Below are positions 1,256 through 39,517 of a DNA stretch of 40,035 nucleotides, one piece after another (the first letter of the stretch is position 1; each line of letters opens with the position of its first letter). Position numbers and translations under genes: made by a program. The notes below the pieces were generated by a model. It was not told the origin of the DNA and did no database searches. It worked only from the letters and a program-made list of their open reading frames with translations. The stretch is from a virus: the UHGV virus genome UHGV-0090445; one strand, written 5' to 3'.

Positions 1256-3238
1256 TTAAGCGCTTGCAATAAAATCCATTTCGAATAGCTGTATTCTATC
1301 GTCTGTTATGTAGGCCTCGAAATATGTTCCATCATATGATGATAACTTAACTCCATTTATATGACCAGCATATGTATCATTGTGCATAATAATTAACTGC
1401 CCGTCACCCTTTCCTACATATTTGCACGTCCATGTCCCATTTGTTTTTGTGCTGTTAAGTAATGTAGTCGTTGACTGCACTCCATCCTTACATATTATAC
1501 CTTTTGCTTCATTTCCTATATACCTTATTCCAAAGTAATTTCCTGATTCCACGGAGCCACAAACTATAAAACCATTTAGTGAATTAACTCCAGATGTAAT
1601 TCCATAAGCAACAGCAAAACCAAGATAGTTAAATGTTTCATATTTTAATACAAGCCGTCGCTCTCTTTTATATCTTACAAGTGCCGTACCGCCAACAGTC
1701 CCCGCTCTTACAACTAATCCACCTTCTGCATAATATTCCAACCCTGAACCTGAGCCGGTTACTTTATTGGTAAATTTATCATAGTCTTGAAATTGAGTAT
1801 GGTGCCTTGTTGTCGCAAGCGTAAATGAAGATGTTACTCCATTAATTGATTTTGTAGCTGTTTCAGTTATAAGCCCTACCTGTACTCCATCAACCCTACT
1901 TTGCGCAACTTTACCAATGCACATACCAAAATCATTACCGATAATGATACCGCCTATCGAAACAGCAACCCAACTTTTTAGTGTGCCAGACATTGGCTTT
2001 AGCGCCTGTCCTATTCTTGTTGAGTTTGAGCTTAATACTCCTCCATGCTTTACAACCATCCCTTTATCATTAATTTCGTTACCGAAATCGCATGATTCAA
2101 CTGATATTGTACTATTATATGCCTCAATACACTTATCAACTCCTACCCCATTGAATGAACAATCATTAACAGCGCCAGATGTGCATCCATAAAATTCAAC
2201 TGAAGCATTTTCATCACTGTGTGTTCTATTTGTAAAGTTTAAAGCGTGCAACTCTGGGCTGTATGGTGTGCCTCCGCATGAAAATACCTGGGCTGACCTA
2301 ACATTAACTGTTGTTCTGTCGGTAGTTCTACTTACTATAACAATGTTTGCTTGTTGCGATGCGCCAGGTGGGAATAGAGGTGTGCACCCCCTCTTGCTTC
2401 TGATTACTATGTCTTCATCATAAGTTCCTGGTGCAATTGAGATAATAATTCTCTGCCAATAATTATTTGGGATATCGTCAATTGCTTCCTGAATGGTCCG
2501 GTAATCTTCCGGAACCATGAGTGTTACAGGCATCGTGTAAATACCCGCCACTGTTGACGAGTCAACGCCAAATGGATGGATGTAACCGCGATACGGATCA
2601 TTACCCCCGATAGTATTGATAAATCCTTCAATGCGTACTTTTGCTGAGTTAGTGTACAGATAACCACATTCACCAATATCTACGCGGAACTTCGCCGGGA
2701 TAGTCAGATCTTCTGTAAATTCCACTGGAACGTTGACAAAAACTCGTCCGTTACCAGAGGCGATGGCGCGTTTGAAAGCCTGCGTGTAGTCTGGAGCTGC
2801 TGGGTCTCCTGGCTCAACAAATGCGCGTAGGTCATAAAATCTTTCCTGCTGACCACCAGGGATTAAAAAACCTTTATCTCCTTCAAGCTCCTGCCTTAAC
2901 TGATCAGGGTCATACTTCAATACGTTTGGATAGTAAAATTGCTGTACGCCATATGCATCATATACAGCCATAGAATGGCCTTGCACAGTTACGAATTTGG
3001 CAATCTGTCCGTTATATACAGGATAACCAGCAGCGTTAATGATTATTGGTTGCGAAACAGGAACATGAGAACCATCTTCGTTTTCTACATAAACCTGAAT
3101 CTGGTTTTCAGGATTTACCGGGTCAGTGTCAATTTTACCGATATAAATTTTGCCATTGGCTACCGCTTTAAAAGAACGAGCCATAGTGAAGAGTTGCGAA
3201 GGCATCGATACGATCACATTGGCTGTAATGTCTGTCAT
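1256..3238 (-). CDS. Tailspike protein, P22 gp9 family (conserved N-terminal head-binding domain, divergent receptor-binding body)
   Basis: 660 aa; N-terminus [11 protein letters not shown]...[35 protein letters not shown]...[12 protein letters not shown] closely matches the remembered P22 tailspike head-binding domain; remainder is not P22-like. Confidence 0.9.
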
Positions 3239-3642: not shown

Positions 3643-3864
3643 TTAGTTATCAAAAAGTCCGTACGTTTCTTCTTCTTTAGGTGTAAGGGGAAGAATCTCT
3701 ACTCTATCTATAGATACCTTTTCAATGTACCCATGAGGTCTACTTAAAATTAAAGCTCTCTCATGCCACAGAACTCCAAGAATGTGATACCTTCCAGCAT
3801 CGCCTTTTACCCTGGCTCTTCCTTTGATTCTTGGCGGCATAATGCCATATTTTTTCTTTGCCAT
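3643..3864 (-). CDS. Hypothetical protein (73 aa), translationally coupled to upstream antirepressor gene
   Basis: ORF from track; its start overlaps the stop of the 3864..4643 ORF (ATGA); basic N-terminus MAKKKYG; no family recognised. Confidence 0.4.
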   Translation of the reverse strand: MAKKKYGIMPPRIKGRARVKGDAGRYHILGVLWHERALILSRPHGYIEKVSIDRVEILPLTPKEEETYGLFDN

Positions 3865-4592
3865 TATGCAACATTACTCCCATGAATCAGGTGTTGTAGT
3901 GCTTTAACACCCTCCGCATTGTAGCGGAATGCTTCCACCTGTTTGCTTGAATGCGCAGATTTATCCAAGAAGAACTTCCCGTACTGCTCAGTTTTGAGGT
4001 TGTTTGCGTTAGCAATGCGACCAATCTTGTTGGCCGTTACTCCAAGCTGCTCTGCAACCTCCCCTGCTGAGTAGTAATGCTCTTCTATTGCCGGAAGAGG
4101 TATTGCATTAAAACCAACGAGCGGGTTGATTATACTTGCTGCCGCTGTCTGCTTTGCCTCCGGCGCAAGATTTGGCATCAGATCGAACAGATTGGTAACA
4201 GCTTCAACCGTCATTTTCAATGTTCGCGCTTGACGATACTCAACAAGTCCACTCGCTGATTTACCGCTTTTAATGTGCGCTTCTTGCATACTTTCAAGTT
4301 GGTCTACCAGTGAGCGGCGAACGGCTTTTGACTCGCGAGCGGCAACTCGCAATGCTTGCTTGATTGACATCTCAATGATAACCATCGAAGTTTTGTTCGC
4401 TTTTTGCACTACACTTTTTGTGTAGTGCTCTCCATCCAATTCATCTTCAATTTTCTCGATGAATTTGTTATTACGAACCTCCGGCTCACCGCACTGTCTA
4501 CGAGCCTGATTTACCATCTCAAGCAGGCGCTGGCTGTCAATGGTTTTATCCGTGACAACGGATCCGATGTTTGCTACATTCTTAAAAGTCAT
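3864..4592 (-). CDS. Antirepressor-like protein (KilAC/ANT-like C-terminal region)
   Basis: Track ORF 3864..4643; likely start is ATG at 4592 (MTFKNVANIG...) with SD AAGGAA 6 nt upstream; C-terminal motif EVAEQLGVTANKIGRIANANNL resembles the KilAC/ANT region of the nin-region Rha protein in this window. Confidence 0.6.
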   Translation of the reverse strand: MTFKNVANIGSVVTDKTIDSQRLLEMVNQARRQCGEPEVRNNKFIEKIEDELDGEHYTKSVVQKANKTSMVIIEMSIKQALRVAARESKAVRRSLVDQLESMQEAHIKSGKSASGLVEYRQARTLKMTVEAVTNLFDLMPNLAPEAKQTAAASIINPLVGFNAIPLPAIEEHYYSAGEVAEQLGVTANKIGRIANANNLKTEQYGKFFLDKSAHSSKQVEAFRYNAEGVKALQHLIHGSNVA

Positions 4593-4661
4593 TAGGCATT
4601 CCTTATGTGGTAGTAAGGGTGTGACATAGGCCGCCAGCAGCACACTGGCGGTTTTCTTTTT
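4587..4661 (+). ncRNA. Candidate sar-like antisense RNA covering the ant2 translation start
   Basis: Plus-strand promoter-like -35 GTGACA (4552..4557), 17-nt spacer, -10 TACATT (4575..4580); strong intrinsic terminator CCGCCAG-cagcaca-CTGGCGG + TTTTCTTTTT at 4631..4661. No plus-strand gene precedes it; transcript would be antisense to the ant2 SD and start codon. Confidence 0.35.
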
Positions 4662-18480: not shown

Positions 18481-19896
18481 TCAACCTACACCACAAGGAA
18501 TTGAGTAACTGGAATAGTCGGGTTGCGCAGCCGACTCCGGGCAATGCATACACATCATCAGCGCATCAGCCAGGTTAGGAGATGGAATACCGAGCTTCTG
18601 CTTCATTTCGACCTTAGTCATAAGCTCCAGCTTCCCGTTGTTATTGAATTTGCGCTGAATCTGCGTCAGTTCTGCAAACAGCTTCTCCAGCATCTTCTCG
18701 CCTATCGCTTCTTTGTCGAAGCTCAGCATGTCGTCGGGGTCTGCATACTCACCGTGGACAACCGCCCGATATGTCAGATACAGCCTGTCAGCCAGCGCGT
18801 AATAGAATTGCGCTCGCTTATTGCGGAACACATCACCAATAGTGCGAACGTTGTCACCCTGTACGACTTCATCAGCCCATGCTCCGGCCTGATACGGCGC
18901 ATCTTCATCGAATGGCGATTCACTTCCCTTGAACATCGTGGCGGTGATTTTCTTGCCGGAGAACGCTTCCGTTGTCTGTCTGCGTAGGCCCGCACCGACG
19001 CCATCACCGTCCCACAGGTAATGGTCAGCGCCGTCTTCAATCGCCAGCGAAGTAGCCCAGTCAGCACCCTCGTTGATGTCCATCAGCAGACCTTCGGCAA
19101 TACGCTTAACTACCGAACCGTGACGCGATGCGTAACCTTTAGCATCTGGACCTGTATCTGACGGGTCATGCGCAGAGACAACGGCGCCTTTCGCCTTCCA
19201 TCCGAGTTTCTTGTGCGCATCGGTTGCGGCTTCAAGCCATTCACGTTTGATGATTGCCATATCACTTGCGCTTACCGGCTCACCAAGCCAGATGTGACGA
19301 TACAGTGTCGGATTTCTGCGTTTACACTCTTCCATCTCCAGACGGAGAACTTCAGGAAAGTGCGGGTTGTCGGTGTAGTTCACCGTCAGCAGACAAATAT
19401 CATCGGGAGGATTTACGACGAATCGCTGATAGGTATCGTCGAGGATGTTCTTAGGGTTAAAGCTCACCCATATTTCGGAAAACGGCTTGCGGATGGTTGG
19501 TATCAGGATATCCCATGATTCCTTCGTTACCGCTTCCGCTTCCTCCACCCAGCAGATATCAATACCTTCTAGCGATTTAATCTTCGTCGGGTTGTTTTTG
19601 ATGCCGTAGAACATGAACTCAGCATTCGTTCCGAGATGACGAATCATGGAACGCTGAATTTCAAACTCAGCCGAATACCCTTCACGCTCGATGGTATCTT
19701 CAAGCAACCGGATTACCGAATCGCTGATACTGTTTTGCAGTTCACGAGCGCAGAGAATACGCACAGGCTGCCGACGTGCCGCCTCAACAAGCAGCCTCGC
19801 AATTGCCCATGATTTACCGCTACCTCGACCGCCTTTGGCGACTTTGTAGCGATGCGCCTCAATGAACGGTTCAAAGATAGGATTAATCGAGGTCAT
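18481..19896 (-). CDS. Terminase large subunit
   Basis: 471 aa; Walker A KGGRGSGKS near N-terminus; followed by portal. Confidence 0.9.
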   Translation of the reverse strand: MTSINPIFEPFIEAHRYKVAKGGRGSGKSWAIARLLVEAARRQPVRILCARELQNSISDSVIRLLEDTIEREGYSAEFEIQRSMIRHLGTNAEFMFYGIKNNPTKIKSLEGIDICWVEEAEAVTKESWDILIPTIRKPFSEIWVSFNPKNILDDTYQRFVVNPPDDICLLTVNYTDNPHFPEVLRLEMEECKRRNPTLYRHIWLGEPVSASDMAIIKREWLEAATDAHKKLGWKAKGAVVSAHDPSDTGPDAKGYASRHGSVVKRIAEGLLMDINEGADWATSLAIEDGADHYLWDGDGVGAGLRRQTTEAFSGKKITATMFKGSESPFDEDAPYQAGAWADEVVQGDNVRTIGDVFRNKRAQFYYALADRLYLTYRAVVHGEYADPDDMLSFDKEAIGEKMLEKLFAELTQIQRKFNNNGKLELMTKVEMKQKLGIPSPNLADALMMCMHCPESAAQPDYSSYSIPCGVG

Positions 19897-29669: not shown

Positions 29670-30467
29670 TCACCTGTCGAAAAACACGTAGCCAGTTTTC
29701 GATACGGTGATTGCGGATGATGGTTTGGATTGTGGTTGAATAGTTTCTGGCTTCTCGTCGTTCCAGCGTTGACCGTTCAGGTAGCTCGATGGTAACAACC
29801 TGTCGAACCCGAACTGCTTACCGAGCCTGCACGCAATGTCTTCTGCCAGCATCGTGGCAAACTCGCTTGCCGTCCCCCTGGTAGTTTTACGCCATTCCCT
29901 GAACTGTGTTCTGAATGCTGAAGCTGCGTTTTTCTTCCCGGCTTTCCGCATGCCTGCACACCAGAATATTTCCTCGAATGCCTTGTCGGTTTCTTCGTGA
30001 CGGTCAGGAGTTTTTTCACACTCTGTTCGGACATGTTCGAACATAATGTTTTTAGGTTCATTGACTGGTTCAAAAGAGTGATAGGTTCTGGGGGCAGCTC
30101 CTGCCCCACCCCCTAGGGCAGCTCCTGCCCCACCCCGGGCAGCTCCTGCCCCACCCCGGGCAGCTCCTGCCCCACCTGATTCTGGTTGGATTTGTTGTGC
30201 ATTATCCAGCGTCAGATAAAAAACGTTTGACTGGTTAAGCTCTCCTTTTCTTCTGAATTCCCTTTTCAAAAGCCCCATCTCTTCCAGTGCCCTAATGTGA
30301 CTTTTTACTGTCGATCTGCTCACCTCACACTGGTCAGCGACATGTTGATATGAAGGCCAGCATTCGCCATTATCATTGGCGTTATCGGCAAGTTTAATCA
30401 GAACCAGTTTTCTCAGTGGGTTGCCAACCTTTATATTCATGGCCTTAGCCATAAGATTCATGCTCAT
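29670..30467 (-). CDS. Replication initiator (O-like, winged-helix HTH N-terminal domain) containing the origin iterons
   Basis: 265 aa; N-terminal RKLVLIKLADNANDNGECWPSYQHVADQCEVSRSTVKSHIRALEEMGLLKR; internal peptide repeats GGAGAAR x4 encoded by the iterons. Confidence 0.75.
   Translation of the reverse strand: MSMNLMAKAMNIKVGNPLRKLVLIKLADNANDNGECWPSYQHVADQCEVSRSTVKSHIRALEEMGLLKREFRRKGELNQSNVFYLTLDNAQQIQPESGGAGAARGGAGAARGGAGAALGGGAGAAPRTYHSFEPVNEPKNIMFEHVRTECEKTPDRHEETDKAFEEIFWCAGMRKAGKKNAASAFRTQFREWRKTTRGTASEFATMLAEDIACRLGKQFGFDRLLPSSYLNGQRWNDEKPETIQPQSKPSSAITVSKTGYVFFDR
30094..30176. repeat. Origin of replication iterons: four dyad-symmetric repeats with 21-bp spacing
   Basis: GCAGCTCCTGCCCCACC at 30094, 30118, 30139, 30160; each contains GGGGCAG/CTGCCCC inverted arms; located inside the initiator coding sequence as ori-lambda is inside O. 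Confidence 0.7.
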
Positions 30468-33951: not shown

Positions 33952-34920
33952 ATGAGTGAAGTAACAGATTTAGTTGTTATTGAAAAAGCAAATGCAATGA
34001 CTGTATTTCAGTCTGCCGACCAGATTGAAGAAATCCTTCAAAGGGTTGAACGTGAAGTTATGTCCTTTGTGCCTGATATCACAACGGCAAAGGGCAGAAA
34101 GGAGATCGCTTCTCTGGCGTATAAAGTTGCGCAGACGAAAACATATCTCGATGGTCTTGGCAAAGACCTTGTTGCTGAACTGAAGGAAATTCCAAAGCTA
34201 ATTGATGCCAACCGCAAGACAGTGCGTGATCGCCTTGATGAGCTGAAAGCCAAGGCGCGCCAGCCTCTTACTGATTATGAGGAGGAACAGGCACGGATTA
34301 AAGCCGAAGAAGAAGCTAAGGCAGCAGCTGAAGCTCTCGCAAAGCAAATTGAGTCTGACCATGAAATAGCGATTTTGATGGATCGCGAATTTGACCGCCA
34401 AAGAGAAGAGGCAAGACTCAAAGCGGAGCAGGAAAAGCGAGAGCATGAAGAACGCTTAAAAAGAGAAGCTGAAGAGAAAGCCAGAGCAGAAGCCGAAGCA
34501 AAGGCAAAAGCCGAAATTGAAGCAGCAGCAAGGAGAGAAGCAGAAGCTAAGGCCGCAGCGGAACGTGCAGAGCGTGAACGCATTGAAGCCGAGCAACGAG
34601 CACAGCGCGAAGCAAAAGAGGCAGCAGAACGAGCTGAAAGAGAAAAGCAGGCGGCAATTGAAGCAGAACGCCGAAAAGCACAGGAGGAGGCTGAACGAAT
34701 CCGGCGCGAAGCTGAAGCAAAAGAGCAAGCCAGAATAGCAGAAGAAAAAAGAATCAAGGACGAAGAAGAGCGTAGAGCAAAGGATAAAGCTCACCGGAAA
34801 GAAGTAAATAACAAAATACTTGCTGACCTTATCAAGGTTGGCGCATCAGAAGATGTTGCTAAAAATATCATAACAGCCATCGTAAAAGGCGAAGTATTCG
34901 CAACAAAAATAACCTACTAA
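33952..34920 (+). CDS. DUF1351-like coiled-coil protein with Ala/Glu/Lys/Arg-rich low-complexity centre
   Basis: 322 aa; conserved-looking N- and C-terminal regions flanking about 130 aa of AEAKAKAE/ERAERE repeats; lies in the recombination module upstream of the annealing protein. Family name from memory. Confidence 0.6.
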   Translation: MSEVTDLVVIEKANAMTVFQSADQIEEILQRVEREVMSFVPDITTAKGRKEIASLAYKVAQTKTYLDGLGKDLVAELKEIPKLIDANRKTVRDRLDELKAKARQPLTDYEEEQARIKAEEEAKAAAEALAKQIESDHEIAILMDREFDRQREEARLKAEQEKREHEERLKREAEEKARAEAEAKAKAEIEAAARREAEAKAAAERAERERIEAEQRAQREAKEAAERAEREKQAAIEAERRKAQEEAERIRREAEAKEQARIAEEKRIKDEEERRAKDKAHRKEVNNKILADLIKVGASEDVAKNIITAIVKGEVFATKITY

Positions 34921-35467: not shown

Positions 35468-36175
35468 ATGGATTTGAATAAATTCGATGAGCCATTCAGC
35501 CACGAAGATATCGAATGGCGAATACAGCAAAGCGGTAAAACACGCGATGGCAAGGTGTGGGCTATGGTGCTGGCTTATGTCACGAACCGGGCAATCATGA
35601 AACGCCTGGACGATGTTTGCGGCAAAGCAGGATGGCGCAATGAATACCGCGATATTCCCAACAACGGCGGAGTTGAATGCGGCATATCAATCAAGATTGA
35701 TTCCGAATGGGTAACCAAATGGGATGCTGCTGAAAACACGCAGGTAGAAGCCGTCAAAGGTGGTCGTTCCGGTGCAATGAAGCGCGCTGCCGTTCAGTGG
35801 GGAATCGGTCGGTATCTGTATAACCTTGAGGAAGGTTTCGCACAAACATCTCTCGATAAAAAGCATGGGTGGCACAGGGCAAAACTGAAGGATGGAACAG
35901 GATTTTACTGGCTCCCTCCATCGCTTCCGGGATGGGCAATCCCAGCATCAGATAACAAACCATCACCAGAAAATATCAACCAGAAATCTCCATCGGTTGA
36001 CTGCGAACAAATCCTGAAAGACTTCAGCGATTATGCGTCAACAGAAACTGACAAGAAAAAACTCATCGAGCGTTATCAGCATGACTGGCAATTAATGGCT
36101 GGCAATGAGGATGCGCAGGCTAAATGCGTTCAGGTAATGAACATCAGAGTTAACGAACTAAAACAGGCGGCATAA
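35468..36175 (+). CDS. Single-strand annealing protein: Rad52/Sak-like N-terminal domain fused to P22 Erf-like C-terminal tail
   Basis: 235 aa; N-terminal region (GKVWAMVLAYVTNRAIMKRLDDVCG...AMKRAAVQWGIGRYLYNL) Rad52/Sak-like; C-terminal ...QILKDFSDYASTETDKKKLIERYQHDWQLMAGNEDAQAKCVQVMNIRVNELKQAA matches remembered P22 Erf C-terminus. Confidence 0.8.
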   Translation: MDLNKFDEPFSHEDIEWRIQQSGKTRDGKVWAMVLAYVTNRAIMKRLDDVCGKAGWRNEYRDIPNNGGVECGISIKIDSEWVTKWDAAENTQVEAVKGGRSGAMKRAAVQWGIGRYLYNLEEGFAQTSLDKKHGWHRAKLKDGTGFYWLPPSLPGWAIPASDNKPSPENINQKSPSVDCEQILKDFSDYASTETDKKKLIERYQHDWQLMAGNEDAQAKCVQVMNIRVNELKQAA

Positions 36176-36643
36176 ATGTCTCACTTGGACGGAATTATTA
36201 AAAGATTCGAGTCCAGCTACAAAGTTAATGAAACAACAGGTTGCTGGGAGTCTACCTATTCAAAAAACAAAGGAGGATACACAAAATTTGTAGCCTTTGG
36301 CGTAACAATGCTTTCTCATCGGGTTGCTTTTGAGCTTTATCACTCCCCCATTCCATCTGGGAAGATGGTTTGCCACAAATGCGATAACCCATGCTGCGTT
36401 AATCCTGAACATCTCTTTTTAGGTAGCGCGCAAGAAAACATGGACGACAAGATAGCAAAAGGAAGGCATCGTGGAGCCAAGAAAGGTCATGCTCATCATG
36501 GTGCAAAATTAACAGAGTGGCAGGTTATAGAAATTAGGAAAAGACTCTCTGAAAAAGAGAGTCAGTACAAGATAGCAAAAGACATGGGTGTATCTCAATC
36601 AATTATAAGCAACATAAAAACTGGCAAGAGGTGGAGAAAATGA
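36176..36643 (+). CDS. HNH homing endonuclease with C-terminal HTH-like region, insertion between annealing protein and SSB
   Basis: 155 aa; Cys/His-rich HNH-like core ([26 protein letters not shown]); C-terminal [22 protein letters not shown]; stop overlaps ssb start (ATGA). Confidence 0.8.
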
Positions 36644-37146
36644 GTTCTCGCGGGATAAATAAGGTGATTATCCTTGGTCGGGTAGGACAAGACCCGGAAG
36701 TTCGATACTCACCATCAGGAACAGCGTTCGCTAACCTGACAATAGCCACGTCAGAACAATGGCGAGATAAAAATACTGGCGAGCAAAAGGAATTGACTGA
36801 ATGGCATCGTGTTGCTGTATCCGGGAAACTGGCTGAGGTCGTGGGGCAGTATGTGAAAAAAGGTGATCAGATTTATTTCGAGGGAATGCTGAGAACCAGA
36901 AAGTGGAAAGACCAGTCAGGGCAAGACCGTTACACAACCGAGGTTCATGTCGGAATTAATGGCGTGATGCAAATGCTTGGCAGCATTGGCGACAGCAAAC
37001 AACAAGCAGCCAGCAGGCAATCACAGAAGCCACAGCAGCAATCATCACCAGCACAACACAACGAACCTCCGATGGATTTTGACGACGATATACCCTTTGC
37101 ACCAGTAACTCTCCCCTTCCCTCGTCACGCTATTCACGCAATTTAA
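36640..37146 (+). CDS. ssb: Single-stranded DNA-binding protein with C-terminal extension past the DDDIPF tip
   Basis: [23 protein letters not shown]...[15 protein letters not shown]...[18 protein letters not shown] close to E. coli-type SSB; ends ...MDFDDDIPF then 15 further residues ([15 protein letters not shown]). Confidence 0.85.
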
Positions 37147-37159
37147 TCAGGAGAAAATC

Positions 37160-37456
37160 ATGCCAGCGCCTCAGTATGGTGCGGATGACCCGCGCCGCTG
37201 TTCCGGCAATTCCGTATCGGAGGTGCTGGATAAATTCAGGAAAAACTACGACCGGATAATGTCGCTACCGCAGGAAACGAAAGAGGAAAAGGAATTTCGC
37301 CATTGTATATGGCTTGCAGAGAAAGAAGAACGCGAGCGAATTTACCAGACATCAATCCGACCATTCCGCAAAGCCACATATACCAACTTCCCTGAATATA
37401 TCGACCCGCGCCTGCGTAATTACCGCTCACGATATGGCGCTATCAGTAATGACTGA
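37160..37456 (+). CDS. Hypothetical protein (98 aa)
   Basis: ORF from track, co-directional early-left gene; no family recognised. Confidence 0.5.
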
Positions 37457-37634
37457 GGAATTTACCATGAGAGGACTTGCATACAATCCCGGCATTCTTC
37501 CGGCAGAAATGATTATTCGCCAACGCGTAAAGCCAATGCCATCGAGAGAGGAATTGCTTAAGAGAAAGAGTTTCGGTTCTGTTAACGACAACAGATATCT
37601 GAATGCGACGTGGCGCAAAGGAGGCAACCAGTGA
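37449..37634 (+). CDS. Small hypothetical protein (about 55-61 aa)
   Basis: In-frame C-terminal part of track ORF 37314..37634; ATG at 37449 overlaps the previous stop, alternative ATG 37467 with SD GAGGA; its stop TGA overlaps the next GTG start. Confidence 0.4.
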
Positions 37635-37885
37635 GTAATTCAGCACGACTACAGCTTGGTTTTTCACCGCTATCAAAAACTATCATGCTGGCAAAAATGC
37701 GCGATGTTGAAGGTGGGCGTATGCGCGTTGGCAATGATCCAGGTCGTGATGTTACCAATGAGGCTGCTCAATTGGTGTGGCGACTGGTCATGGTTGAAGG
37801 TGGTGAGATCGCGTGGGAGCTGGATGATGGTTCTCGCATGGTGTTGAAGGCAGAAAAGCAGGAGGCAACCAGTGAGCCAGATTGA
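37631..37885 (+). CDS. Hypothetical protein (84 aa, GTG start)
   Basis: GTG at 37631 preceded by AAGGAGG (37618..37624) with 6-nt spacing; track ORF 37610..37885. Confidence 0.5.
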
Positions 37886-38408
37886 TTATCAGGCACTGCG
37901 TGCTAAGGCAGAAAAAGCAACGTGTGGCGAGTGGTCGCTCGAATATGGAGAGAGCCGATTTGATTGTGATGATGCGCTAATTCATCGTGACATTGTTGGA
38001 TATCTTCCCATTTGCAGAATTGAAGGAGCGCATCCTGAAAGCGGTTTCGATGAAGATTTCCAAACTGAACAGCAGGCCAATGCTGAATTCATCGCCGCAG
38101 CCAATCCGGCTACCGTGCTGGCACTACTGGATGAACGGGAAAGGAACCAGCAATACATCAAACTCCGCGATCAGGAGAACGAGGAAATTGCGCTAACGGT
38201 AGGGAAGCTGCGTGTTGAGCTGGAAGCCGCAGAGAAGCGCATTGCAGAACTGGAAGCACGGGAGGTTGTACTGCCGCGTGCGCACGATGTTCACCCATTA
38301 GGGCCGCAGTCGGCGAAAATTTTTTGTGAGTTTCACCGGAGTATCGTGAACAGATGCGCCGATGAGATTCGCAAGGTTGGCGTCAAAGTCAGCATCAAGG
38401 GGAATTAG
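37872..38408 (+). CDS. Ead/Ea22-like protein
   Basis: 178 aa, GTG start preceded by AGGAGG; motif QQANAEFIAAANPATVLALLDERE followed by coiled-coil-like segment, typical of Ea22-like proteins as I recall them. Confidence 0.65.
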   Translation: MSQIDYQALRAKAEKATCGEWSLEYGESRFDCDDALIHRDIVGYLPICRIEGAHPESGFDEDFQTEQQANAEFIAAANPATVLALLDERERNQQYIKLRDQENEEIALTVGKLRVELEAAEKRIAELEAREVVLPRAHDVHPLGPQSAKIFCEFHRSIVNRCADEIRKVGVKVSIKGN

Positions 38409-38412
38409 GGAT

Positions 38413-39123
38413 ATGGCTGAACTAACCAAAGAATGGCTGAAGCAAACTATCGCTGAATACGAAGCCAATCGTGATGAATTACCGTTTGGACTGGATACCA
38501 ACAGTGCCATTGGGCTTCAGGCGTTCAAGTTGGCGCTGGCATCACTGGAAGCAGAGCCGGTGGCGTGGAAGGCAACCTTCACGCAAATTAACCATGAATG
38601 TAATACGTTCACCCTTATGAATTCTGACAAAGCAGAAATCGAACGGTGGGTGCGACTGCATAAAGTAGGTGATTTTCGGGCAGAAATAACACCGCTTTAC
38701 GCAGCGCCGCCAGCGATGGTAGTGCCTGATGAAATGGATTTACTTACCTGCCATCTCGACGGTGTAACTGAAACATATGCTGATGGCTGGAACGCCTGCC
38801 GTGTCGCCATGCTTCAGTCCGGAAACTTTCGGGATAATAAGAATTCGTCAACCAACAATTTTCGGGAAATCCCGGAAACGTCAACCAGCTCTCCGGGAAC
38901 TCCGGCTGGCTGGATAAGCTGTAGTGAGCGAATGCCTGAAAAGAACCAGAACGTGCTTATTTCGGTGAATTTCGATAGCTCTCTGGTTGAACCGCTAATA
39001 TGCTCCGCACGCTATACCGGAAGCACCTTTCGACGCGGAGATGCAACGATTAAGCCGGGTAATGGTATTGAGCAAGCAACCCACTGGATGCCGCTACCAG
39101 AACCGCCGCAGGAGATGAAGTAA
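38413..39123 (+). CDS. Hypothetical protein with DUF551-like C-terminal region
   Basis: Internal start ATG 38413 (MAELTKEWLKQ...) of ORF 38362..39123; C-terminal WISCSERMPEKNQNVLISVNFD...WMPLPEPP resembles DUF551-type phage domains. Confidence 0.55.
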   Translation: MAELTKEWLKQTIAEYEANRDELPFGLDTNSAIGLQAFKLALASLEAEPVAWKATFTQINHECNTFTLMNSDKAEIERWVRLHKVGDFRAEITPLYAAPPAMVVPDEMDLLTCHLDGVTETYADGWNACRVAMLQSGNFRDNKNSSTNNFREIPETSTSSPGTPAGWISCSERMPEKNQNVLISVNFDSSLVEPLICSARYTGSTFRRGDATIKPGNGIEQATHWMPLPEPPQEMK

Positions 39124-39401
39124 TGGACTCCTTCGCGAAATATACGATTATTGACTGGATTGCCTTCCTTCAGGTTTTGCTCATCTGGTTTTATATGGCT
39201 TACAGGAGTGGGCAGTGGATTGTCAGTGTAGCCTGTAGCAAGGGATGGCGTTGGTGGAACAGAAAGAATAAAAAAGCACTGGCATTGGATTCGTTTTACG
39301 AAGCATTCAATCTTAACAGCCTTCAGCCTGGTTCTGTCATTGTAGTCCCCACTCAAAGCGGCATGACCATTCAGATTCATAAACCAAAAGAGGAAAAATG
39401 A
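39123..39401 (+). CDS. Hypothetical protein (92 aa) with one hydrophobic segment
   Basis: ORF from track; start overlaps preceding stop. Confidence 0.5.
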   Translation: MDSFAKYTIIDWIAFLQVLLIWFYMAYRSGQWIVSVACSKGWRWWNRKNKKALALDSFYEAFNLNSLQPGSVIVVPTQSGMTIQIHKPKEEK

Positions 39402-39487
39402 TGTGGCCTATATGTGTTAATTGCGGACGGATGTGCCTATCTGGATGGTGCCGAAAGTGCGACAAATGCACGAAGAAAAGACAATAA
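39398..39487 (+). CDS. Small Cys-rich ORF (29 aa), possible zinc-binding peptide
   Basis: ATG overlaps previous stop (ATGA); MMWPICVNCGRMCLSGWCRKCDKCTKKRQ; too short for the ORF track. Confidence 0.25.
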   Translation: MMWPICVNCGRMCLSGWCRKCDKCTKKRQ

Positions 39488-39490
39488 CAA

Positions 39491-39517
39491 TCCTCGCACT
39501 CGCGGGGATTTCTTTTA
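39491..39517 (+). terminator. Intrinsic terminator
   Basis: CCTCGC-ACTC-GCGGGG followed by ATTTCTTTTAT. Confidence 0.4.

Follow-up and report, generated by a model that had tools for sequence, protein, structure and literature searches.

How does the same short sequence come to stand at the start of two consecutive genes of one phage, and does it do more there than initiate their translation? The question is raised by the 17-mer AGGAGGCAACCAGTGAG, found twice in the window (the whole stretch of DNA analysed here, 40,035 nt, a complete P22/HK620/Sf6-like phage genome), at 37619–37635 and 37860–37876, both times as an exact match on the + strand. The first-pass annotation had described it as a cassette of Shine–Dalgarno (SD) sequence plus GTG start used by two genes, and as a conserved junction enabling module exchange among Ea22-like early genes. 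Both positions hold exactly, and these are the only matches in the window even when up to three mismatches are allowed (0.04 expected). Two or more matches occurred in 0/100 dinucleotide-preserving shuffles, and an independent repeat search recovered the same pair, with a spacing of 241 nt. By our own arithmetic, about 0.05 exact 17-nt repeat pairs would arise by chance in a window of this size. The identity is confined to the motif: in ungapped, motif-anchored comparison, the flanks of copies 1 and 2 are identical at 21/75 positions on the left and 21/75 on the right, which is the random level.

Genes and reading frames at the two junctions

The window encodes a lambda-type integrase with an arm-binding domain (14–1207), a tailspike with a P22-type head-binding domain (1256–3238, − strand), and a primase-helicase, and the 17-mer junctions are placed in its early-left operon. 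The relevant genes, all on the + strand, begin with a Rad52/Erf-like single-strand annealing protein (35468–36175; Pfam PF04098, E = 2.1e-25; phrog_1097), 1.4 kb upstream of the junctions in the same operon, followed by an HNH endonuclease with a C-terminal HTH (36176–36643; PF13392), SSB (36631–37146), and the anti-RecBCD protein Abc2 (37160–37456). The upstream partner of junction 1 is a 55-aa DUF2737 gene (37467–37634; PF10930, E = 2.1e-28; phrog_1117). Next comes an 84-aa DUF7446 gene with a GTG start (37631–37885; PF24233, E = 3.4e-18, 65.7 bits against a cut-off of 24.1), which is bounded by both copies, and then the downstream partner of junction 2, a 178-aa Ead/Ea22-like gene, also with a GTG start (37872–38408; PF13935, E = 3.8e-31, 108.9 bits against a gathering cut-off of 27). 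A DUF551-containing protein follows (38413–39123). The first-pass annotation had Ea22-like genes downstream of the junctions, which is right for copy 2, while copy 1 joins DUF2737 to DUF7446.

Two features of this gene order can be recorded alongside. The HNH gene begins right behind the Rad52-like gene and ends inside the start of ssb, with no room left over, while in a close relative, the prophage of E. coli CH10508 (L351), ssb directly follows the Rad52-like gene; the HNH gene looks like a free-standing homing-endonuclease insertion. The Ea22-like and DUF551 proteins match consecutive parts of phrog_60 (1–155 and 116–281 of 461), and the two may be a single fused protein in some phages.

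Each copy spans a stop/start junction and carries a perfect SD (AGGAGG), the 6-nt spacer CAACCA, and a GTG, an arrangement that fits anti-SD complementarity 5–9 nt before the start codon. The same letters also end the preceding ORF, in a different frame at each junction, just as the first-pass annotation had it. At copy 1, DUF2737 ends AAA GGA GGC AAC CAG TGA (…KGGNQ-stop), its stop overlapping the DUF7446 GTG at 37631 by 4 nt (GTGA). At copy 2, DUF7446 reads (C)AG GAG GCA ACC AGT GAG CCA GAT TGA (…QEATSEPD-stop) and ends 11 nt past the Ea22-type GTG at 37872, an overlap of 14 nt. A left shoulder, CGCAA (37614–37618, + strand), is present at copy 1 and absent at copy 2; it lengthens the identity of copy 1 to 22 nt with the commonest junction type (…CTTCGCAA plus the 17-mer, C-terminus …LRKGGNQ-stop).

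The start codons are well placed by comparison. Both GTG starts are called identically by RefSeq/PGAP in an E. coli prophage of 98% identity, with the same geometry (DUF7446 overlapping DUF2737 by 4 nt, the Ead/Ea22-like start 14 nt before the DUF7446 stop), and of 80 Ea22 homologues, 60 carry GTG at the Ea22 start and 19 carry ATG (79/80 together). ATG variants of the 17-mer (AGGAGGCAACCAATGAG) are found at both junction types. Neither ORF can start further upstream, because the DNA 5′ of the motif is unrelated in other phages. With this good comparative support, the GTGs at 37631 and 37872 are the probable starts in vivo, and the claim that each copy supplies an SD and a GTG start is borne out.

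A search of the + strand in 36500–39500 gave neither promoter nor terminator. RNA folding of 86 nt at either copy gave no stability beyond that of shuffled sequences (z = +1.28 and −0.43), and an Rfam scan of 36500–39000 found no family near the copies, only one sub-threshold chance match far away; folding and scan together reject an RNA element at the 17-mer. Both copies are therefore internal cistron junctions of a polycistronic operon. They resemble the translationally coupled cistrons (ATGA/GTGA overlaps) of phage operons, with the SD inside the upstream coding sequence and a stop–start overlap, the 4-nt GTGA at junction 1 and 14 nt at junction 2, without intervening promoter or terminator. 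Ordinary coupled junctions are, however, specific to a gene pair, whereas the 17-mer serves many unrelated pairs whose upstream members are read in different frames.

Other repeats in the window were noted in passing. A second exact 17-nt direct repeat, CAAGAAGAACTTCCCGT, lies at 628–644, within the integrase gene, and at 3966–3982, overlapping a − strand ORF (3864–4643); it may be a chance pair, though only ≈0.05 such pairs are expected per window. Four iteron-like direct repeats with a period of ≈21–24 nt (…GGGCAGCTCCTGCCCCACC) at 30085–30176 lie inside a − strand ORF (29670–30467) resembling an HTH_36 replication initiator, and are probably the replication origin. Degenerate GAAGCnGAAGC… repeats at 34306–34750 fall within a + strand ORF (33952–34920), whose 322-aa early-left protein owes a Glu/Ala/Lys-rich stretch to them and has no Pfam match.

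Recurrence and changing neighbours in other phages

The exact 17-mer was found in at least 120 IMG/VR viral stretches by an exact-match scan. Species-representative bacterial and archaeal genomes (596 Gb) contain 65 exact matches, close to the ≈69 expected by chance (596e9 × 2 / 4^17, our own arithmetic). Most of them are scattered over unrelated taxa, and Escherichia accounts for only two; a broad bacterial distribution is thus rejected. The 17-mer is therefore a specific mark of the lambdoid phages of enterobacteria. Piecewise matches to the region occur in HK620, Sf6, HK106, HK633, Stx phages, and Salmonella phage 29485, and parts of the 1.35-kb segment 37100–38450 are matched in 2,065 of 5,426 complete E. 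coli genomes. At least 80% of the combination of abc2, DUF2737, DUF7446, and this Ea22 variant stands in one place in only 15/5,426 of them, and no INPHARED phage record covers ≥80% of 37100–38450 in one place. The exact combination of the window is rare. IMG/VR and the E. coli prophages are heavily redundant, and occurrence counts here and below do not equal independent events.

The first-pass annotation had suggested a search of related phages for the 17-mer at gene boundaries, and it does recur there, at junctions with many different neighbours. Neither of the outcomes that the annotation had named as refuting its idea, a motif missing from related genomes or starts mapping to other places, came about in these comparisons. 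In 145 occurrences in relatives (at most one mismatch), the clustered flanking proteins form 16 upstream and 12 downstream clusters in 32 combinations; some of these are trivially short, and the substantial families number about a dozen upstream and about ten downstream. An upstream ORF ends within 35 nt of the GTG in 143/145 occurrences: in 100 it is read in frame +1 (…RKGGNQ-stop, the stop lying in GTGA), in 37 in frame +2 with …EATSExx-stop tails and a stop 11 nt past the GTG, and in six more in frame +2 with other stop offsets. The remaining two have an upstream ORF that runs in frame into the downstream gene. Nearly all downstream genes open GTG AGY.

The boundaries of the shared sequence are sharp. 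When each flank class (35 upstream, 24 downstream) contributes a single sequence, information reaches ≈2 bits per position only across the 17-mer, with weaker shoulders formed by CGCAA on the left and the 5′ end of the Ea22-type gene on the right. The 218 distinct junction segments hold 97 distinct flank-class combinations.

Two arrangements among these loci stand somewhat apart. In HK106 (L004, 2647–2663; also L011 and L117), the annotated 336-aa ORF HK106_032 contains the 17-mer in its own reading frame, 60 codons past its ATG and directly before the Ea22-type N-terminus; HK106_032 may be a genuine N-terminal fusion or may carry an over-extended start call, the internal GTG being the real start. 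Furthermore, a C-terminal module (…AFLAEVRAQG…FADQLRKGGNQ-stop) ends many otherwise different ea-region proteins, Ea22-like ones included. It occupies the 60 nt before the motif in HK620 hkaH (L001) and in many IMG/VR loci, while DUF2737 has only its last seven codons (CGCAA plus the motif), which suggests that the …LRKGGNQ-stop tail has itself been transferred between genes.

Loci were also fetched through the flanking proteins instead of the motif, 80 per gene end. In these samples, which carry a slight ascertainment bias because one of the six peptide seeds per search overlapped the 17-mer, the exact sequence was present at 50/80 DUF2737 3′ ends (77/80 within two mismatches), 44/80 DUF7446 5′ ends (12 more with one mismatch), 44/80 DUF7446 3′ ends (14 more with one mismatch), and 47/80 Ea22-type 5′ ends (59/80 within two mismatches). 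The gene after DUF2737 was of the Ea22 type (≈44), DUF7446 (15), a VTGHAA gene (7), an Sf6 gp22-like gene (6), or another, while DUF7446 was preceded either by DUF2737 (≈40) or by an unrelated gene ending …CTTCGCAA (21). Across 67 DUF2737 genes, per-site diversity is 0.077 in the motif versus 0.087 at other synonymous/third positions, and rises sharply only past the DUF2737 stop; special purifying selection on the 17-mer is, on these figures, unsupported in close relatives.

Breakpoints, single-gene cassettes, and known boundary sequences

Alignments anchored on the motif, with 75 nt compared on each side, place the points at which similarity between phages starts or stops within a few bases of it. 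Copy 1 of the window resembles the Sf6 gene 23/22 junction on the left (61/75) and departs from it on the right (21/75), and the reverse holds against L059, in which an unrelated gene precedes DUF7446 (left 27/75, right 74/75). Copy 2 compared with HK620 hkaH/hkaG shows the latter pattern (left 19/75, right 67/75). In L005, a single 17-mer joins DUF2737 straight to an Ea22-type gene, and the junction is copy-1-like on the left (61/75, against 13/75 on the right) and copy-2-like on the right (48/75, against 19/75 on the left). The same direct joint of DUF2737 to Ea22, made by one copy, is seen in many phages. The L005 junction looks like the expected product of a deletion of DUF7446 between the repeats, or like the substrate for its insertion.

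Pairs of copies (at most two mismatches) within 2 kb of each other define 57 distinct intervals, and 45/57 of these hold exactly one ORF, running from the first GTG into the second motif. The single ORF is DUF7446 in 30 intervals, an Ea22-like gene with the …LRKGGNQ-stop tail in 12, an 86–87-aa protein in two, and a 124-aa protein in one. DUF7446 behaves, to judge from its repeated occurrence in this setting, as a single-gene cassette bounded by two copies of the 17-mer. The idea of a module-exchange junction proposed from the window alone is supported, with some corrections: recurrence and coinciding breakpoints speak for it, while the exchanged cassettes are not only Ea22-like, and the word "enabling" goes a step beyond the pattern to its cause.

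Junctions of this kind have a history. Short conserved boundary sequences that would allow homologous module exchange in lambdoid phages are credited, in PMC3029335, to Clark et al. (2001) and Susskind and Botstein (1978), and PMC2327257 likewise cites Clark et al. (2001; J Mol Biol 311:657, on HK620) for the idea. PMC3029335 also describes most mosaic boundaries as being without conserved sequences. The GenBank record of Sf6 (AF547987) annotates bsq2–bsq7. One of these, bsq3 (19844–19874), is a 31-nt stretch that begins directly behind the A of the start codon in the Ea22-like gene 21. The window carries a homologue of bsq3 at the 5′ end of its own Ea22-type gene (37873–37903, + strand), with 28/31 positions identical; the first 4 nt of this homologue are also the final 4 nt of copy 2, and the 17-mer otherwise lies upstream of it. 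Sf6 lacks the 17-mer at its bsq3 junction and has GGGTGATGTGACATGAG there instead. No annotated bsq matches copy 1 at the DUF2737 3′ end, the HK620 record has no bsq feature in this region, and the epsilon34 and ea22 papers make no mention of the junction sequence.

The 17-mer is like the bsq elements of lambdoid phages in being short, conserved amid unrelated flanks (the 35 upstream and 24 downstream classes), and located at gene borders of the early operon, as both window copies, 143/145 occurrences in relatives, and the PGAP annotation agree. It also has alternative modules on either side (the 16 upstream and 12 downstream clusters in 32 combinations) and is, like the bsq elements, proposed to serve module exchange by homologous recombination. 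On the sequence comparison, it forms the upstream core, with the SD, of a junction that was already catalogued for its downstream half (bsq3), and copy 1 is a second instance of that junction, at the DUF2737 3′ end. Among the boundary sequences that had been proposed before in lambdoid phages, the junction is a clear case and an expected one.

Origin of the shared 17 nucleotides

A recurrent sequence in fixed register with start and stop codons, read in different upstream frames, combined with many flanks, and coinciding with breakpoints of similarity, is what we observe; we think it probable that the 17-mer is a translationally functional, coupled intercistronic junction that doubles as a short homology patch for exchange of ea-region cassettes. 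It would be the conserved core of a junction common to the gene pool of lambdoid (P22/HK620/Sf6/HK97/Stx-like) phages from E. coli, Shigella, and Salmonella, found where their early-left operon is variable (the "ea" part). In any single genome, its SD, spacer of 6 nt, and GTG, which coincide with the last codons of the preceding cistron, would couple the translation of neighbours; across genomes, the same letters would be the patch of identity where alternative small genes are joined. Homologous or short-homology recombination in or beside the 17-mer, by the host RecA pathway or a phage Rad52/Erf-type annealase, could then insert, replace, or delete cassettes while stop and start are kept working. 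DUF7446 in the window would accordingly sit between the halves of a canonical DUF2737-to-Ea22 junction, with the 17-mer duplicated on either side. Crossovers within the motif, and the enzyme responsible, are the conjectural parts of this scheme, the Rad52/Erf-like protein being a candidate catalyst.

That candidate has precedents. A role of Rad52-like recombinases in mosaic formation was proposed by De Paepe et al. (2014, PMC3945230), and relaxed, short-homology recombination by such enzymes is treated in that paper and by Martinsohn et al. (2008, PMC2327257). The phage studied here likewise encodes a Rad52/Erf-like annealase, with SSB and Abc2 alongside it just upstream of the junctions, and its mosaic is built of single genes or parts of genes that meet at short identities. 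The stretches in those studies were however diverged homeologous ones of ≥100 bp, compared with 17–22 nt here, which is below the minimal efficient pairing segments (MEPS) given in PMC3945230 (23–27 bp for Red-beta and 31–34 bp for RecA). Exchange in the motif alone (17 nt, or 22 nt with CGCAA) should therefore be rare. For many swaps, the homology used may be the longer one of a whole neighbouring gene that both partners have on one flank, and on the Ea22 side, the contiguous homology is longer, comprising the motif and ≈30 nt of bsq3.

The alternative that survives best, though we hold it to be unlikely, is that the 17-mer is a translation signal only: its identity would come from selection for efficient coupled initiation, it would play no part in recombination, and mosaic joints would lie at gene borders only because those elsewhere are lethal (illegitimate recombination plus selection, a Hendrix-type explanation). 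The perfect SD, its 6-nt spacing, and starts backed by comparative data and PGAP all agree with this, as do the conservation of the motif at no more than background level in close relatives, its length below published MEPS values, and the statement in PMC3029335 that most mosaic boundaries lack conserved sequences. Selection for a ribosome-binding site (RBS), however, leaves the spacer free. Diverged DUF7446 homologues have SD and start in the same place within another sequence (e.g., AGGAGCCGCACTATGAG), as do diverged Ea22 homologues (e.g., GGGTGATGTGACATGAG, as in Sf6); these differ in spacer and have ATG, so that the sequence of the 17-mer is not imposed by its work as an RBS. Yet its spacer is identical although unrelated upstream genes read it in two frames, and illegitimate joints would not recreate the same 17 nt across about a dozen upstream and about ten downstream families. 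Identity across unrelated contexts and frames reflects, on this comparative evidence, common descent spread by recombination, and not convergence.

A stronger version of the homology-patch reading can also be framed, in which the 17-mer is more than a relic of earlier exchanges: it would have evolved as a "plug-and-play" junction, setting up a cassette array that needs no recombinase of its own in the ea region of enterobacterial lambdoid phages, and the annealase, SSB, and Abc2 of the phage would prefer it as a short-homology hotspot. We consider this quite improbable. If true, the junction would supply a start to whatever follows, upstream genes in two frames would end at it or shortly after, and the third frame would give an in-frame fusion, as in HK106; any inserted cassette would then be expressed, allowing rapid turnover of accessory or host-takeover genes.

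It is very unlikely that the repeats are the footprint of a dedicated mobile cassette, whether an integron-like or other site-specific site, a target-site duplication, or an HNH homing target. Direct repeats do flank a single-gene cassette, and an HNH endonuclease gene lies 1 kb upstream, but the motif lacks dyad symmetry and forms no hairpin of significance (z = +1.3 and −0.4), the lambda-type integrase at 14–1207 was the sole recombinase to be found, the cassettes are without a transposase, and end repeats are equally expected from homologous exchange. An attC or other site-specific recombination site is rejected for want of the hairpin and of a cognate recombinase beyond the lambda-type Int, and a link to the HNH endonuclease because the CH10508 prophage has both copies and no HNH gene. 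Integron cassette arrays, bounded by attC, do share promoterless single-gene cassettes in one orientation with a recurring boundary sequence; attC is however an imperfect palindrome served by an integron integrase, both absent here, whereas the 17-mer is made up of an RBS and a start codon. Only in outcome are the two alike, by analogy.

The possibility that the pair arose by chance, or through a recent local duplication in this one genome, is practically negligible, for although another exact 17-nt repeat in the window (628–644/3966–3982) indicates that rare chance pairs are possible, no shuffle gave two matches, both copies stand in identical register with a start codon, and the two-copy arrangement recurs in many other phages, recurrence in related genomes already ruling this explanation out.

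The preferred reading, a coupled translational junction doubling as a patch of homology, bears on the debate over phage mosaicism, in which illegitimate recombination followed by selection is set against homologous exchange at short conserved linkers. For the linker side, the 17-mer junction is an unusually clean and abundant example, and its small size, its sharp limits, and its frequency among E. coli prophages make it a convenient system in which to test cassette exchange. In annotation, it can be used to mark GTG starts and cassette limits among small unknown genes. No new kind of system comes to light in the junction, which illustrates a known idea neatly and quantifiably and comes as no surprise.
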